DNA of 64,000 nucleotides, from the NCBI GenBank assembly GCA_963674755.2, contig CAXXVS010000003.1:2739925-2803924 (forward strand), written 5' to 3'. Below, one piece after another: positions 27,001 through 33,000 of this stretch. The DNA comes from Desulfobacterales bacterium (GTDB lineage: Bacteria; Desulfobacterota; Desulfobacteria; Desulfobacterales; UBA5852). Made by a program: the position numbers. The stretch's first letter is position 1; every line of letters starts with the position of its first letter.

Positions 27001-30000
27001 CTTTTGCGGCGTATGTCAAAGATGTCCGCGATCGCTCGTTTCCCGCGGCCGAACACACCTACCGAATGGTGGCGGGTGAACTGGAGAAACTCGATTCCTG
27101 CCTGAAAACGAATCAATAGAAAGGTACGATTAATGTTAATTGACGCAGAAAAGTGCATTGGCTGTGGCAATTGTGTTGCCTATTGTCCGGTTGAAGCGAT
27201 CAGCCTCAGCAAGCGACCTGAGCCGCAAAGCGCAAAAGGGAAGGATCGCCTGGCGGTCATCGATCTTGAAGAATGCGCTGAATGCGGCGTCTGCCTGCGG
27301 TCCGCCAAATGTCCGACCGACGCCATCTACCAGCAACCGCTGGTCTATCCGCGAACCGTCCGCAGCCTGATGAGCGACGTGTTGACCATTGCCGAGGAGT
27401 CTCAGATTTCCGGCCGGGGCACCGAAGAGATGAAGACCAATGAGGTGACCGGCCGGTTCAAGCCCGGAATCGTCGGTGTGGCCATCGAGGTCGGACGACC
27501 CATAACGGGCACACGCATGGTCGACGTGGAAAAGATCGCCATGGCGGTCTGCGCCCTGAATGTCGATTTTGAGTCGTGCAATCCGGTGACCAGCATGATG
27601 ACCGATCCCCGGCGCGGAAAGTTCAGGGACGATCTGCTCAATGAGAAGGTGCTCTCCGCCATCCTTGAGTTTGCCGTGAAGCTGGAACAGCTGCCCGAAT
27701 TGTTTTCAATCTTGAAAAAAGTGGAAAAGGAGATCGATTCGGTCTTCAGTCTCGATCTTGCCTGCCGGCTGGATGCGGACGGCTCCAATCCCACGCGGCC
27801 TTATATCGCAGACGCCGGACTCTGGGTCGCGCCGAATGGGAAAACCAATGTCGGTCTGGGACGGCCGCTACTCGTGGAGGATGAACAGAGATGACCCATA
27901 CACTGCATCGATTGGGCACGGATGAAAGTATACTGAAACAAGACTTTGTAATGCTGGCGATGCCGTCCAAGGATATCAACCATGTCGGATCCGCGCCGAA
28001 ACTGAGACGCTTTTTTGAAATTGCCTTGGAAGCGGGTGCGATAAAAATAGGCGATTGTCGTAGCGGCAATGAGTACTATCAGGGCGGTGTCGATAAGATT
28101 CTGGAAAATGTCGAAGACCGTGCCGTCATCCACGCTGTTTTCAAGGACAAAGACGCGGTTATTGCCGCGTTGAAGCAGTTGAAAAAAGAAGATCTGGGAA
28201 TGTCGATCGTGGTTTCCGGACTTTTCAGTGAGGTCGACACGATCTGCCAATGCGCCGACCTAAAGCCGCACACGATTAACCAGTCGCTGGGGCGCTGGGG
28301 CAAAACGGATAAACTGCCCCAAACCGAGATCGTTGAAATTCAAACGATGTGCGGCCATGGAATGGTTTCGGTCAATCTTATCAACAAGGCCGTGGATCGG
28401 ATCAAGGCCGGTAAGACAACGCCTGAAAAAGCGGCCGAAACGCTTTTCAAACCCTGCATGTGCGGCATTTTCAATCCCCACCGGGCCGCATTGTTGCTCC
28501 GGTCGCTCGCTTCGGGGGAATGAGAAGAACATTTTGCCGTCGTAGCATGTAACGCTAAAATCTGACCTCGAATTTTGCTCCCGCTGCTTGCCGCGGCGGG
28601 ATCAGAATTCCGCTGATCCGTGCAAAGCGCCAGGCAGAGGCTGGAGGTCGGAGCCGGAATTCCTAAGTCCCCGGCAGCTTGCTGCCGGGATTGGAATTCC
28701 AGTGTTTTGCTGCTTTAGTCGTCGCGCGGACCCCCCGCCGGATCCCCTAAGCGCTTTATCCTCAACGTTAAATTACCGACAACCAGTCGCAAAACTTGTC
28801 GACCCCCTTTGTCAGGATTTTCTGCCAAACCCTTCCCGGATGATAACCGCCTAAAAAAGCGGCCACCCCTTGAGGTGTACCGCTTTGTTGTTAAACTTGA
28901 TGGAGGGTTGGAGCGAGCGGATTTCGCTTGCTGAACGGTCGTTTAACGATGGAGGTCTTTCATGAATGCTGCCTCATCAACGGTAATTGAAACCAAAATC
29001 AATGCCTTTCAGAAAATCCATGCCGAGTTTAAAGACATTTTAAAGCACGAGAAGTGTCGTACCTGTTCATGCCTGCATGCCGACGTGCTGAATATTCTTC
29101 TCGAAAAGATCAGGACATTTCGAAAAAGCGAAGCGGATCGTCGTTTGGTCGTGATCGAAAATGATTTCGAGCGCTGGGCCAATGATGCCGACATGTTGAA
29201 GATGCATGGCTGACTGGGGTGCCGCCCCTGTCTGCCGGTTCCGGCATACAACACCTTCAACGCGCTATTTGATGGCCTCAATGGGGAAGCTTATGCGCCC
29301 GCTCCGCCCTTGCGGACCGAGCGAATCCGGCCGGATGAATTTGCGGCCGATAACTGGCCGGTGCAGCCCGGGGATTATGTCGTGTTAAATCCCAAAAAAT
29401 CGGCGGCCATAGCTGTATTGGGAGGCGTCGATTTCGATGGGCCGGCATCGGGCTTGGTTGGATCCGAGATCGCCATCATGGGCGGCATCACCACGGAAAA
29501 CCTGGGTGTGGAGCACCTTGTCAAAAACATCATCGCGAATCCCTTCATCCGCCATCTGGTGATATGGGGCGAGGATGTGGACGGTCATCGGCCCGGCGAT
29601 GCGCTGCTTTGCTTGTCACACAACGGCATTGATAAGCCCGGGAGAATCATCGGTGCCCATGGGGCCAGGCCGGTCTTGAAGAACATCACGGACCAAGAGG
29701 TTGCCCATTTCAGGCGGCAGATTACGATTGTTGATTTGATCGGCAGGAAAGAAGTGGACGACCTGACCGGACAGTTTGCCGCGTTGCGGCGCCGGCCGGT
29801 CCAACCTTACGAGGCCGGCCTCAAAGTCGACTCGGTCGAGATCCGGAGGGCCGCGCCCGCCCGGCGCCTGAAACTCGATCCGAACGGCTATTTTGTCGTC
29901 ATGGTGATGAAGAACAGGGAACATCCTTTGCTGGTGGAACATTACGGCAACGACGGCATTCTCCGAAACCTGATCGAAGGCAAGGATGCCGCGAGTATCT

Positions 30001-33000
30001 GTGCCACATTGATTGAGAAGAACCTTCTCTCCCAACTGGACCATGCGGCTTACCTGGGCCGGGAGCTGGCCAAAGCCGAGCTGTCCATCCACATGCAATC
30101 CCGCTATACGCAGGACCGGGCGCAGGGCGAATTGCTTTAAGTTGCCCGACCACAACGCAGGACAAGTAAGCAAGGCGTCAATAATCTTGTCGGCATAGTT
30201 TTGACAACCCCCTGAATAATTGCTTAAATGCCCAAGATGTTCGGCCATCCGACGATCCACATCGCCCACCTCATATCAGGGTGCCCGCTGTGGACAAAAA
30301 GCAGATGTCAGAGCAGGACATATGCTCCAAGTTCATCCCCCAGCCATTTCCGACGCCGGCTGGGACCTCCAGACCCAAATCCGTGAGGAAGTCACCTTCA
30401 CCCAGGGCCTCATCATTGTCCGGGGTAAATTTATAGAAGGAGTCCATCATGCCTGAAATCACCCGCCAGAGAGTTGGAGAGCTTGTCAGAGGCGTTTTCC
30501 AGATTCTGATGGAAAATCCTGAGGGTCTGAAGGCGAAAGAGGTTATTCAAAAGCTCGAAGCCCTTGTCCCACCAACCCCATTCGAAGACTCGGTCTATCC
30601 GAACAACCCGTCAGTCAGACGCCGTGATAAGATCGTCCGCTTTTCGACAATTAATCCGGTGAAGGCAGGATGGATGACGAAAGATAGGGGGCTTTGGTCC
30701 ATCACCGAGGACGGCATAAAGGCCTTTGATGAATTCACTGTCCCTGAGACATTCGCAAGGGAAGCGGGGCGCCTGTACAAGAAATGGAAGGATCAACAGC
30801 CCGATGAGGAAGAGGTCCCAGATCCCGACGAAGGTGAAACCGGCGCCGCACTGACGCTTGAGGAAGCCGAGGAAGCCGCCTGGAGCGAGATTGAAGCGCA
30901 TCTGAGCGAAATGAACCCATATGAGTTTCAGGATTTGGTGGCCGGTCTACTAAGGGCAATGGGGTACCATGTTGCTTGGGTTTCACCACCAGGACCGGAC
31001 AAAGGGCTGGACATTCTCGCCCATACGGACCCGCTTGGGATTGCCGGAGCAAGGATAAAGGTTCAGGTAAAACGCCATGCTGACCGTGCTCCTGTCCAAG
31101 ATATACGCTCATTCATGGCCATCTTGGGTGACGGTGATGTGGGTATTTTCGTTTGCAGCGGCGGTTTCACCAAGGACGCTGAGCAGGAAGCACGGGGGCA
31201 GGAAAGGCGCCGAATCATGCTTTTGGATGCCCGCCGACTATTTGACCTGTGGGTTGAGCATTACGAGAAGATCCCAGAGCGGCAGCGGCGCCTTATGCCT
31301 TTGAGACCGATCTATTTTCTTGCGCCTGATGAATGAGACGGCTGTTTACATTCACTCTTAAATAGTCTCCTATTAAACGAATGGGAAAAAGGAAGAAAGC
31401 ATGATCACACGGATCCAAGCATTAAATTATCGATGCTTAAAGTACGTAGACCAAGCTTTGGGTCCGTTTCATGTCCTTGTCGGCCCCAATGCTACGGGTA
31501 AGACTACATTTCTTGATGTGGTTGGGCTTCTTCATGATGTTGTAAATAATGGCCCAGCCCAGGCTCTCAACGAGCGAACAAGAGACTATAAAGATTTGCT
31601 ATTTGGTGGCACTGGCAATTGTTTCGAATTAGCTGTTGAAGCTCAAATTCCAGAAGATCGTAGAAGGAAAATAGAGAAGCCTGAATTAGATACAGCTCGA
31701 TATGAACTCTCTTTGGGATTTTCTGAGGGTTCGGAGGAGGCATCAATTCTCGCTGAGAAACTGCTGATCCTCAAGTCAAAGCCAAAAGAAAGAGTTTGTC
31801 AAACCGAACTTTTTCCATGTTCAGTTGATCCACCTAAAACCATCATATCTCCTAAAACCGTTATTGGGGCCAAGACTATTCTGAATAAGATGCCGGGAGG
31901 AAATGATAATTTTCAACCAGAAACAGAAAGTGCAAAAGGCAAACGATGGGTCTATTCTTTTAAGCTCGGCCCAGGCAAATCATCGCTTGGTAATTTACCA
32001 GAAGATGAAGAGAAGTTCCCTGTCGCAACTTGGTTTAGAGACCTTCTTGGTGAAGGCGTGCAGCGCTTCATTCTTAATAGTACCTTAATGAAGAAGGCCA
32101 GCCCTCCAAGCAAAACGAAGGGTTTTCTTACCGATGGTTCAAATTTGCCTTGGGTAATTGCCAGGTTAAAGTCGAGATCACCCGAGCTTTATAAGGACTG
32201 GATAAGCCATTTACAAACTGCTTTACCTGATTTGGAAGGGATCAAAACGATAGAACGAGAAGATGATAGACACTGCTATTTGGTGTTTAAATATAAGGGT
32301 GGATTTCAAGTTCCATCTTGGGTCGCATCAGATGGTACTTTGCGACTATTGGCCCTCACCTTGCCAGCATATATGGGCAACTTCAGAGGTGTGTATCTTA
32401 TTGAAGAGCCCGAAAATGGTATACATCCAAAGGCTGCAGAAACTGTATTTCAGTCCCTTTCATCTGTTTACGACGCCCAAATTTTGCTTGCTACACATTC
32501 ACCGGTCATCCTTAGCCTTATTGACAAAGATGAGGTGAAGAAAGTGCTCTGTTTTGCAAAGACACCCCAAGGGGCAACCGACATTGTTACAGGTGATAAA
32601 CATCCAAAGCTTAGAGATTGGACCGGTGATCCAAATATCTCTCTGCTATTTGCCGGCGGAGTACTCGGATAATGGATCTTGTGGCTCTCGTGCCTGATCA
32701 AGATTATGAGAAAGCTCTTGAGGGATTATTTCTGAGGCATCAGGCTCTTGGGATACGGCCTATTACCTTTACCTACTATCGCCATCCCAATCGTGATGCG
32801 GGATGCAGAGCTAAGTGTACCTCCTTTCTTCGGCCTTTTATAGATCAATTTGATTATGCTCTCGTTATGTTCGACTTTGAAGGTTCAGGGGCTGAAAACC
32901 ATGCTCGGGAACACATTGAAATTGGCATCGAAACTGACTTAGCCCGTAATGGTTGGGCTGAACGCTCTGCAGTCATTGTTGTTGAGCCAGAAATAGAGGC

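Follow-up and report, generated by a model that had tools for sequence, protein, structure and literature searches.

A gene in the window (the whole 64,000-nucleotide stretch of a Desulfobacterales genome that we analysed) very probably encodes a selenoprotein with selenium incorporated at residue 84, to judge from its sequence and those of its relatives. We read the product as a Sec-carrying corrinoid protein of three domains and propose a mechanism for it; for this explanation as a whole, we estimate a probability of about 0.85. An earlier note had joined two gene calls, g05902 (83 aa) and g05903 (276 aa), into one gene across an in-frame TGA, and re-reading the frame gave the same result (Table 1). 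From the ATG at 28962 on the forward strand, an 83-codon open reading frame runs up to the TGA (contig positions 2769135-2769137), which is the sole interruption of a 392-codon frame, and the same frame continues to the TAA at 30138-30140. The predicted product has 392 residues, including U84. That this is a split selenoprotein gene also agrees with our other findings: Sec is paired with Cys among the relatives, the TGA is kept in relatives with 44-95% identity, a hairpin lies at SECIS distance, and the Sec apparatus is complete.

Table 1. Features of the predicted selenoprotein gene (positions in the window)
Feature	Position	Strand	Basis or remark
Shine-Dalgarno-like GGAGG	28951..28955	+	6 nt 5' of ATG 28962; read from the sequence
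Whole selenoprotein gene (predicted), 392 codons + TAA	28962..30140	+	previously two calls, 83 aa + 276 aa; one match with 1 internal TGA
N-terminal helical domain, residues 1-112, six invariant Cys/Sec	28962..29297	+	A4 and A3 alignments; AF2 pLDDT 84-92
First Cys triad, C32-x-x-C35-x-C37	29055..29072	+	invariant in 55/55 aligned sequences
In-frame TGA, predicted Sec84	29211..29213	+	TGA in 20 loci; Cys in 67/67 other loci covering the site
Second triad, U84-L-G-C87-R-P-C90 (UxxCxxC)	29211..29231	+	C/U84, G86, C87, C90 and P92 invariant
Putative bacterial SECIS	29229..29250	+	core 29233-29246, UGCCG-GUUC-CGGCA; lower stem UGU/ACA with one mismatch
MtrA-like cobalamin-binding domain (predicted), residues 128-277	29343..29792	+	Pfam E 4.8e-36, 124 bits (cut-off 25)
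E179 and H209, predicted cobalamin ligand residues	29496-29498 and 29586-29588	+	both invariant in 55 sequences
PterinBD-DUF4346 (PF14251), residues 305-385	29874..30116	+	Pfam 78.2 bits (cut-off 29.6), E 8e-22

The earlier note had seen the TGA kept in four of four related loci. We extended this to 20 loci (including the window) with TGA at the residue-84 codon, which represent 14 distinct 120-nt sequences. Among the 80 loci on genome contigs, 12 have the TGA, 67 have Cys, and one lacks the N-terminal part. The relatives without TGA that cover the site are all fused frames, and in each of these 67 loci the Cys lies within an invariant C-x-G-C-x-x-C-x-P motif. One Cys form that had been reported before, a 387-aa homologue (50% identity, 98% coverage), was found again as P0034, and in our tree it is nested inside the Sec clade, which has an SH-aLRT support of 100. 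The three-domain architecture is widespread (at least 565 loci). We looked at where the 120 best database homologues begin: 66 do so 1-8 residues past U84 (at MPVPA, LPVPA, or MGCKPC), as had been expected of truncated calls, 31 at positions 93-120, and 22 farther on, which leaves one of full length. Reading through the UGA thus corrects a systematic mis-annotation, in which 119 of these 120 entries are N-terminally truncated at or after this codon.

We give almost no credence to the TGA being a real stop, with the two halves as separate proteins (83 aa and about 276-302 aa) or as a decaying pseudogene, even though nearly all databases carry the gene as split calls and many relatives offer a separate ATG or CTG start at MPVPA/LPVPA. 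In the window, translation could next start at TTG 29310, 33 codons past the TGA, and this TTG has no GGAGG-like motif 5' of it. If the TGA were a true stop, then residues 85-116 would go untranslated, and these include the invariant G86, C87, C90, and P92. Furthermore, both halves are conserved, the TGA persists in all 14 distinct sequences, even where protein identity has fallen to 44%, every relative without TGA is fused and has Cys at the site, and no terminator-like site was found between the halves.

Selenoprotein decoding requires selA, selB, selC, and selD, and the genome of the window has all of them: SelA, SelB, two selD genes (both with a TGA in frame), and a tRNA-Sec (75.6 bits, G73). 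SelA is also present in four of five other genomes with the TGA, as compared to one of five genomes with the Cys form. SelB and tRNA-Sec would read the UGA as Sec, guided by a small hairpin that starts 20 nt after it and has UGCCGGUUCCGGCA as its core and GUUC as its loop. However, this genome has a second tRNA-Sec-like gene, of the selC* type (UCA anticodon, A1:U72, U73), and a second selB follows it closely on contig C1. PMC5389517 describes this arrangement in Desulfobacterales, and shows that a tRNA of this kind inserts Cys at UGA in E. coli. The UGA might therefore be read wholly or partly as Cys here by this tRNA and the second SelB, so that the product would be a Cys form. We consider this decidedly unlikely. 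Besides the complete canonical Sec system in the same genome, four further genomes that share the TGA and the hairpin each have a single tRNA-Sec, with G73 (E <= 1e-8), so the signal at the level of the family favors Sec.

A bacterial SECIS is a stem-loop shortly 3' of the UGA, with a G in the apical loop and with the loop 16-37 nt from the UGA. The window has a hairpin with a GUUC loop, UGCC(R)GUUCCGGCA, at +20 to +33 after the UGA (the earlier note gave 21-34, which is a difference in counting convention only), and this hairpin is found in every Sec gene. All 17 Sec rows of the alignment contain its core, and none of the 66 Cys rows does. We compared synonymous sites across 12 full-length Sec genes, which gave 45 comparable codon columns that are invariant and at least four-fold degenerate. 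Just three of these 45 columns use a single codon; they are the consecutive codons 93-95 (GTT CCG GCA) inside the hairpin, so its conservation exceeds chance. Across 29229-29250, 92.9% of alignment cells are paired. RNAalifold on 14 sequences gave a consensus stem of 12 pairs at the UGA itself; the stem that had been noticed there before thus recurs, but the compensatory change that had been reported with it does not (0 compensatory pairs). Neither the downstream hairpin nor the RNAalifold stem shows base-pair covariation, because the core is invariant. The R position is A in 5 of 14 sequences, which disrupts the uppermost pair of the simple hairpin but is compatible with the long RNAalifold stem, so we regard both structures as candidates for the SECIS. 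The region folds no more favorably than shuffled sequences do (z = -0.45), Cys-form sequences fold about as stably as Sec forms, and a search of the region against Rfam found no match to a SECIS family.

Besides the Sec site, the protein has two domains that the earlier note had described as corrinoid-binding and pterin-binding. Both Pfam matches were recovered. For the first, homology and the kept ligand residues point to cobalamin (corrinoid) binding; for the second, "pterin-binding" is the Pfam label, and we treat it as putative. The MtrA-like domain matches PDB entry 5laa (E 1.6e-52, hmmsearch), and Foldseek aligns it with 5l8x/5laa (E ~1e-14, TM-target 0.84-0.88, rmsd 1.6-4 Å). H209 and E179 align with GH and TEN of 5laa; the part of PMC4915002 on Methanothermus fervidus MtrA gives His84 as the lower axial ligand and Glu54 as its partner. 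The DUF4346 region also matches the C-terminus of TIGR00284 (dihydropteroate synthase-like; E 3.6e-14, positions 416-495 of 497), which includes MJ0301-type proteins; the remainder of those proteins is unrelated. The TIGR00284 family acts in methanopterin biosynthesis.

The cytoplasmic MtrA homologues of methanogens (5LAA and 5L8X; Wagner et al. 2016, PMC4915002) share the Rossmann-type cobalamin domain, have equivalents of His84 and Glu54, and lack a transmembrane helix. In contrast to them, the window protein is bacterial and has a six-Cys/Sec domain at its N-terminus, DUF4346 at its C-terminus, and a predicted Sec. We rejected membership in the membrane MtrA-H methyltransferase complex: after the MtrA-like domain there is DUF4346 instead of a transmembrane segment that could serve as an anchor, and neither the Mtr complex nor MtrH was found in the genome (97% complete). 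In NCBIfam 20.0, there is no selenoprotein model for the family. The one model found, NF002128 (PRK00964.1-6, "tetrahydromethanopterin S-methyltransferase subunit A," 390 positions), is a non-selenoprotein model with the same three-domain architecture, and residues 11-390 match its positions 8-373. With a score of 294 bits (cut-off 568), the window protein is not a member of this equivalog. The model's name denotes a putative function transferred from archaeal MtrA, and the model does not flag Sec.

The N-terminal helical domain is new and specific to this family. It has no specific match in the PDB, and a domain search found it only ahead of MtrA domains. The domain would bring together the two triads, C-x2-C-x-C and U/C-x-G-C-x2-C. 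The six Cys might just as well bind an Fe-S cluster or a structural Zn as the metal(loid) proposed below. The spacing U-x-x-C-x-x-C is identical in GrdB, the selenoprotein B of glycine reductase (PMC13188914, section 7), which differs in fold, pathway, and domain content. Relatives from Firmicutes and Chloroflexota have extra CxC-rich linkers, one of them with Sec, that resemble metal-binding tails, and two relatives (L091 and L026, from Dethiobacter and Chloroflexota) have a second, independent Sec/Cys pair with its own hairpin.

The earlier note had stated that MtrA-like/DUF4346 proteins are not in Table 1 of a 2026 review of prokaryotic selenoproteins (PMC13188914), and we likewise found no entry for them in the full table or in the text of the review. 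With them, the catalogue of prokaryotic selenoproteins would gain a family that has good support and in which Sec occurs at two independent sites, and the window protein is the first MtrA-type cobalamin protein with a (predicted) Sec. It would join the selenoproteins in that review that are linked to metal(loid)s or organometals: HgcA/HgcB, Sao, ArsM, P-type ATPase, and MerT-like.

As for what the protein does, we infer the substrate and direction of methyl transfer and the partner of the Cys/Sec site. The protein would be cytoplasmic. The MtrA-type Rossmann domain would bind cobalamin base-off/His-on through H209, with E179 in a hydrogen-bond relay, and the corrinoid would cycle between Co(I) and CH3-Co(III), carrying the methyl group. 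The partner held at the six-Cys/Sec site would most likely be a thiophilic ion of a metal(loid), either bare or methylated; alternatively, the site would supply redox equivalents. As compared to Cys, Sec would be a softer and more nucleophilic ligand. That the window protein acts on a metal(loid) is our tentative proposal. Among 84 loci of relatives, 31 have ArsR within 4 kb, and in 24 it immediately precedes the gene on the same strand; other neighbors are DsbD_TM (20 loci), Trx-like (12), RND (8), P1B-ATPase (6), CDF (4), and MerR (3). One of 30 proteins scanned is itself fused to an ArsR-type HTH. Such surroundings of the Cys-type relatives, with ArsR-type metal sensors, metal pumps, and membrane proteins rich in thiols, suggest that a methyl group is moved by the corrinoid onto or off a thiophilic metal(loid).

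It is rather doubtful, by our estimate, that the Cys/Sec site is instead an Fe-S or redox centre that keeps the corrinoid as Co(I), in a methyl carrier of ordinary C1/methyl metabolism with no part in metal handling. The corrinoid iron-sulfur protein offers an analogue in its [4Fe-4S] domain, six invariant Cys in two triads would suit such a centre, and UxxC-type motifs are mostly redox, with predicted Fe-S-type selenoproteins in PMC13188914. The Sec clade fits this as well: a metal-family neighbor occurs in just 4 of its 18 loci, and Trx/DsbD genes occur in none of them. The window gene's neighbors are GntR, TctCBA, ADH, and, upstream, genes for PanB-like and 4Fe-4S ferredoxin-like proteins. 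On the other hand, the Cys-type relatives lie in operons under ArsR/MerR control, together with metal pumps and thiol-rich membrane proteins, in 54 of the 84 loci; the CxC-rich linkers look like metal-binding tails; no C1-pathway partner is conserved beside the gene in the loci of relatives examined; and MtrH was not found in the genome.

A more speculative extension of the metal(loid) proposal, which we think unlikely as it stands, is that the whole family, in both Cys and Sec forms, detoxifies metal(loid)s as a so far undescribed kind of enzyme that depends on a corrinoid and a pterin, and that Sec evolved twice and sharpens metal capture. Neighboring membrane proteins with CC motifs would import thiophilic ions or organometals (such as methylmercury or methylated arsenic), which the six-Cys/Sec site would bind. 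The MtrA domain, through Co(I)/CH3-Co(III), would remove or add a methyl group, and DUF4346 would pass it to or from folate or methanopterin. If so, then the long-sought MerB-independent ("oxidative") demethylation of methylmercury, or else the anaerobic (de)methylation of arsenic, would have a candidate in this family.

The mercury-methylating protein HgcA, whose Sec form is in Table 1 of PMC13188914, has the same logic of a corrinoid protein with a critical Cys/Sec, and it too has Sec variants in lineages of sulfate reducers. Part of a preprint (bioRxiv 10.1101/2022.10.17.512643) reports an ArsR-like regulator upstream of hgcAB. The likeness is in functional logic only: HgcA is CFeSP-like with a membrane domain, as opposed to the MtrA fold, its motif is CU rather than UxxCxxC, and its partner HgcB is absent here. 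There is no kinship in sequence or fold, and we rejected an HgcA/CFeSP-type corrinoid protein, as neither Pfam nor NCBIfam gave a match to the CFeSP corrinoid domain at E <= 1.

The Cys-type relatives reveal a widespread and so far unstudied operon, in which ArsR is followed by the MtrA-like/DUF4346 gene and then by Trx-like and CcdA-like genes. Cultured hosts of this operon include Methylomonas methanica, Dechloromonas, and Paenibacillus naphthalenovorans, so its function is directly testable by genetics and biochemistry.

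The two genes called at this locus (83 and 276 amino acids) form a single reading frame that is interrupted only by a TGA codon, and the earlier note had placed this codon correctly on the contig. The frame opens with an ATG that has GGAGG ahead of it, runs for 83 codons to the TGA, and then stays open to a TAA, so the TGA is the sole internal stop (see the table for coordinates). The read-through product has 392 residues, with selenocysteine (Sec) at position 84 in the motif H-G-U-L-G-C-R-P-C-L-P; the residues spanning the site are ...MHG-U-LGCRPCLPVPAYNTFNALFDGLNGEAYAPAPPLR. 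The earliest start codon past the TGA, where the second gene call begins, is a TTG 33 codons on. It lacks a ribosome-binding motif, and no terminator-like site was found between the two halves of the gene. In a 95.5%-identical relative (X4), the gene is uninterrupted and the differences listed include no change to the TGA.

Features of the selenoprotein gene, its surroundings, and related loci (positions without a prefix are in the window)
Feature	Position	Remark
GGAGG	28951-28955	ahead of the ATG
ATG start codon	28962 (+)	selenoprotein gene
In-frame TGA	29211-29213	codon 84
Hairpin	29233-29246	29229-29250 with the possible lower stem
TAA stop codon	30138-30140	selenoprotein gene
PanB-like, ferredoxin-type, and 210-aa ORFs	26262-28523	directly upstream of the selenoprotein gene
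Low-G+C stretch	27500-33500	selenoprotein gene at its edge
Mrr-type restriction gene	30449-31336	in low-G+C stretch
AAA_21 ATPase	31401-32672	in low-G+C stretch
Unassigned 207-aa ORF	after the Mrr and AAA_21 genes	in low-G+C stretch
selD, first copy	C1:776949-777875	one in-frame TGA
selD, second copy	C3:2083622-2084545	one in-frame TGA
Second tRNA-Sec-like gene and second selB	C1:789350-791366	loci L002, L010
Second TGA	L091:6319-6321	Dethiobacter MAG
Second TGA	L026, codon 119 of 154-1330	Chloroflexota MAG
Cys-type gene with expanded linker	L092:5959-7362	Paenibacillus naphthalenovorans
Membrane neighbor with GCCGSP motif	L069:7619-8164	example
Secreted neighbor with C-x4-C pair	L042:4405-5007	example

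To see how the TGA is conserved, we scanned one genome per species and found at least 565 relatives. Among the 80 loci that were kept, the aligned position is TGA in 12 and Cys in 67; the other locus lies at a contig end and lacks the N-terminal part. Of 301 genomes from the same order that were searched in all six frames, just three contain the gene, each with one in-frame TGA, and metagenome contigs gave only five further TGA loci. The total is 20 TGA loci (14 distinct sequences), whose proteins are down to 44% identical to the window's protein. Whether Sec or Cys, the site sits in an invariant motif, [U/C]-x-G-C-x-x-C-x-P. The N-terminal part is missing from 119 of the 120 best database homologs, and 66 of those 119 start 1–8 residues past the Sec codon (with MPVPA, LPVPA, or MGCKPC). 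Only one of the 120 is full length: P0034, a 387-residue protein (50% identity) with Cys at the site. A quick maximum-likelihood tree built from 55 sequences groups the TGA forms with P0034 in one clade (SH-aLRT 100). One TGA-type gene placed within the Desulfobacterota clade is from a MAG that carries the label Hyphomicrobiales (L018, on a contig of 3.7 kb); this short contig was probably mis-binned, unless the gene was transferred.

All of the Sec genes contain UGCC(R)GUUCCGGCA at +20 to +33 past the UGA, as a hairpin that could be widened by a possible lower stem (UGU/ACA). The strongest evidence for a recoding signal is a test of codon usage across 12 full-length Sec genes, in which 45 columns have an invariant amino acid whose degeneracy is four-fold or higher. 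Just three of these columns use a single codon in all 12 genes (V93 GTT, P94 CCG, and A95 GCA). These three are consecutive and inside the hairpin, and all four third bases occur in the adjacent Gly and Pro codons. Furthermore, the 9-nt core of the hairpin is found in 17 of 17 Sec rows versus 0 of 66 Cys rows, and it is missing even from Cys forms that encode P-V-P.

Other results speak against a settled structure for the element. No base-pair covariation is seen in the hairpin because the element is invariant, and RNAalifold favors a longer stem in which the UGA region pairs with CCRGUU, which accounts for the R position. Shuffled sequences fold as well as the 71 nt that surround the UGA (z = -0.45), and in the +13 to +56 region the minimum free energy does not tell Sec genes apart from Cys genes (means of -11.0 and -10.3, respectively). 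An Rfam E-value scan of 28000-31000 gave chance-level matches only and no SECIS family. Despite these fold results, the frozen codons and the Sec-only core show that there is a nucleotide-level element at SECIS distance after the UGA, with a putative structure.

The genome encodes a tRNA-Sec (75.6 bits, UCA anticodon, G73), SelB, SelA, and two copies of SelD, both of which are themselves predicted selenoproteins (each gene has an in-frame TGA). Among the other genomes searched, SelA was found in four of five with the TGA versus one of five with Cys forms. The genome also has, outside the window, a second tRNA-Sec-like gene directly upstream of a second selB paralog. The anticodon of this tRNA is UCA, its acceptor stem of 8 bp starts with A1:U72, and its discriminator is U73. 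The pair matches the selC*/selB* system, which is known from Desulfobacterales and whose tRNA puts Cys at UGA, according to PMC5389517. It is therefore possible that some Cys is inserted at codon 84 in this genome. In four other genomes that share this TGA, the canonical G73 tRNA-Sec is the only one at E<=1e-8. A 491-aa ORF lies 3' of selB* on the same strand and is a candidate truncated cysS*.

That the family uses Sec is made more likely by a second site. Two MAGs, one of Dethiobacter (L091) and one of Chloroflexota (L026), have Cys at the first site and another in-frame TGA in a linker, within C-x-C-G-G-T-U-G-T, where a Ktedonobacterales relative (L028) has Cys (CSCGGTC). A separate hairpin lies downstream of each TGA; for the second TGA it is GCAGCC-GGA-GGCUGC, about 17 nt past it. 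The Dethiobacter genome encodes SelA and a G73 tRNA-Sec; a search for SelA in the Chloroflexota MAG did not find it. Judged from these sequences, Sec was acquired twice independently in the family, both times in a Cys-rich stretch, and this strengthens the family-level claim. The Cys-type protein from P. naphthalenovorans has an expanded linker of about 70 residues with ACGC/CGC repeats between the N-terminal and MtrA domains, which looks like a metal-binding tail.

Overall, the sequence comparisons make a solid case for a new selenoprotein family. As the earlier note had claimed, the 2026 review (PMC13188914) has no MtrA-like/DUF4346 entry, either in its Table 1 (119 families) or by text search. 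No model in NCBIfam 20.0 treats the family as a selenoprotein, and searches of the main texts of open-access papers found nothing on it. The NCBI-sourced matches are truncated records named "DUF4346 domain-containing protein." One NCBIfam model, NF002128, spans the full architecture, and the window's protein scores 294 against its cut-off of 568.

Pfam places MtrA at residues 128-277 and PterinBD-DUF4346 at 305-385. A profile built from 55 members of the family hits solved structures of MtrA (E = 1.6e-52), and the AlphaFold model (pLDDT 91.7) superposes on them (Foldseek E of about 1e-14). MtrA has a cobalt-ligating His with a Glu partner, as described in PMC4915002; the counterparts here are H209 and E179, both invariant. 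Unlike a subunit of the Mtr complex, the window's protein lacks a membrane anchor, and a search for MtrH in the genome (97% complete) found none. Residues 1-112 are modeled as a helical bundle (pLDDT 84), and the invariant Cys/Sec residues of this N-terminal domain are C32, C35, C37, U/C84, C87, and C90. Foldseek gave no match to the domain at E<=0.001, and an ESM Atlas search with residues 1-108 of P0034 gave no usable match. A designed three-helix bundle was rejected as a relative, as its VIA-align Z of 8.3, the best obtained, is within helical-bundle noise, and we assign the domain to no known fold. When 1.84 billion representatives were searched with a profile, 450 proteins proved to have the domain. 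For 30 of these we ran Pfam: MtrA lies downstream of the domain in 22, and another enzyme domain in none. Just one of the 30, P0214 (506 residues), has an ArsR helix-turn-helix (residues 36-81) ahead of the usual three domains (six-Cys, MtrA, and DUF4346); either regulator and enzyme are truly fused in it, or two genes were called as one.

For functional clues, we clustered all ORFs within 4 kb of 84 loci (L092 is left out of the counts). An ArsR-family regulator is near 31 loci and is directly upstream on the same strand at 24. The other most common neighbors are DsbD/CcdA-type membrane proteins (20 loci), a thioredoxin-like protein with a membrane anchor, encoded directly downstream (12), RND pumps (8), secreted two-Cys proteins without a Pfam family (8), MacB/FtsX (7), P1B-type ATPases (6), membrane proteins with a GCCGSP motif and no Pfam family (6), CDF transporters (4), and MerR (3). 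L092 itself has ArsR and P-type ATPase genes upstream. Seventeen of the 24 upstream regulators have ELCVCD and N-terminal Cys, which we take to be the thiolate site at which sensors of the ArsR/CadC type bind metal. These neighbors suggest that the protein acts under stress by thiophilic metal(loid)s. Given this context, a corrinoid that would carry methyl groups, and a domain whose label is pterin-binding, the most economical proposal is methyl transfer between a pterin and a metal(loid) bound at the Cys/Sec site. A serious rival is that the six Cys serve an Fe-S or redox role. The case for a metal(loid) role is weaker for the Sec clade, as only 4 of 18 Sec loci have a metal-family neighbor; the census found no conserved neighbors for this clade. 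We consider the metal(loid) link an interesting but unproven lead. Two of the neighbor families lack Pfam matches: membrane proteins with GC(F/Y)LxGCCGSPML (L064, L065, L069, L077, L086, and L090), a motif that recalls the CC pairs of MerT/MerC, and secreted proteins of about 130–160 residues with a C-x4-C pair (L039, L042, and L045).

In the window, the genes upstream of the selenoprotein gene encode two GntR regulators, TctCBA, a Zn-dependent alcohol dehydrogenase, and an SBF-like transporter, as well as glycerate-kinase-like, PanB-like, and ferredoxin-like proteins; the Mrr and AAA_21 genes are downstream. Directly upstream, the PanB-like ketopantoate hydroxymethyltransferase, the ferredoxin-type protein (253 aa, 2x[4Fe-4S] domain at the N-terminus), and a 210-aa ORF without a Pfam family are encoded head to tail by overlapping genes, an arrangement that is not kept in a 79%-identical relative (L015). 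None of the six other genomes searched within the genus has the selenoprotein gene. The stretch that holds this gene at its edge has a G+C content of 0.42-0.56, versus 0.60-0.65 in the flanks, and is probably an acquired island.
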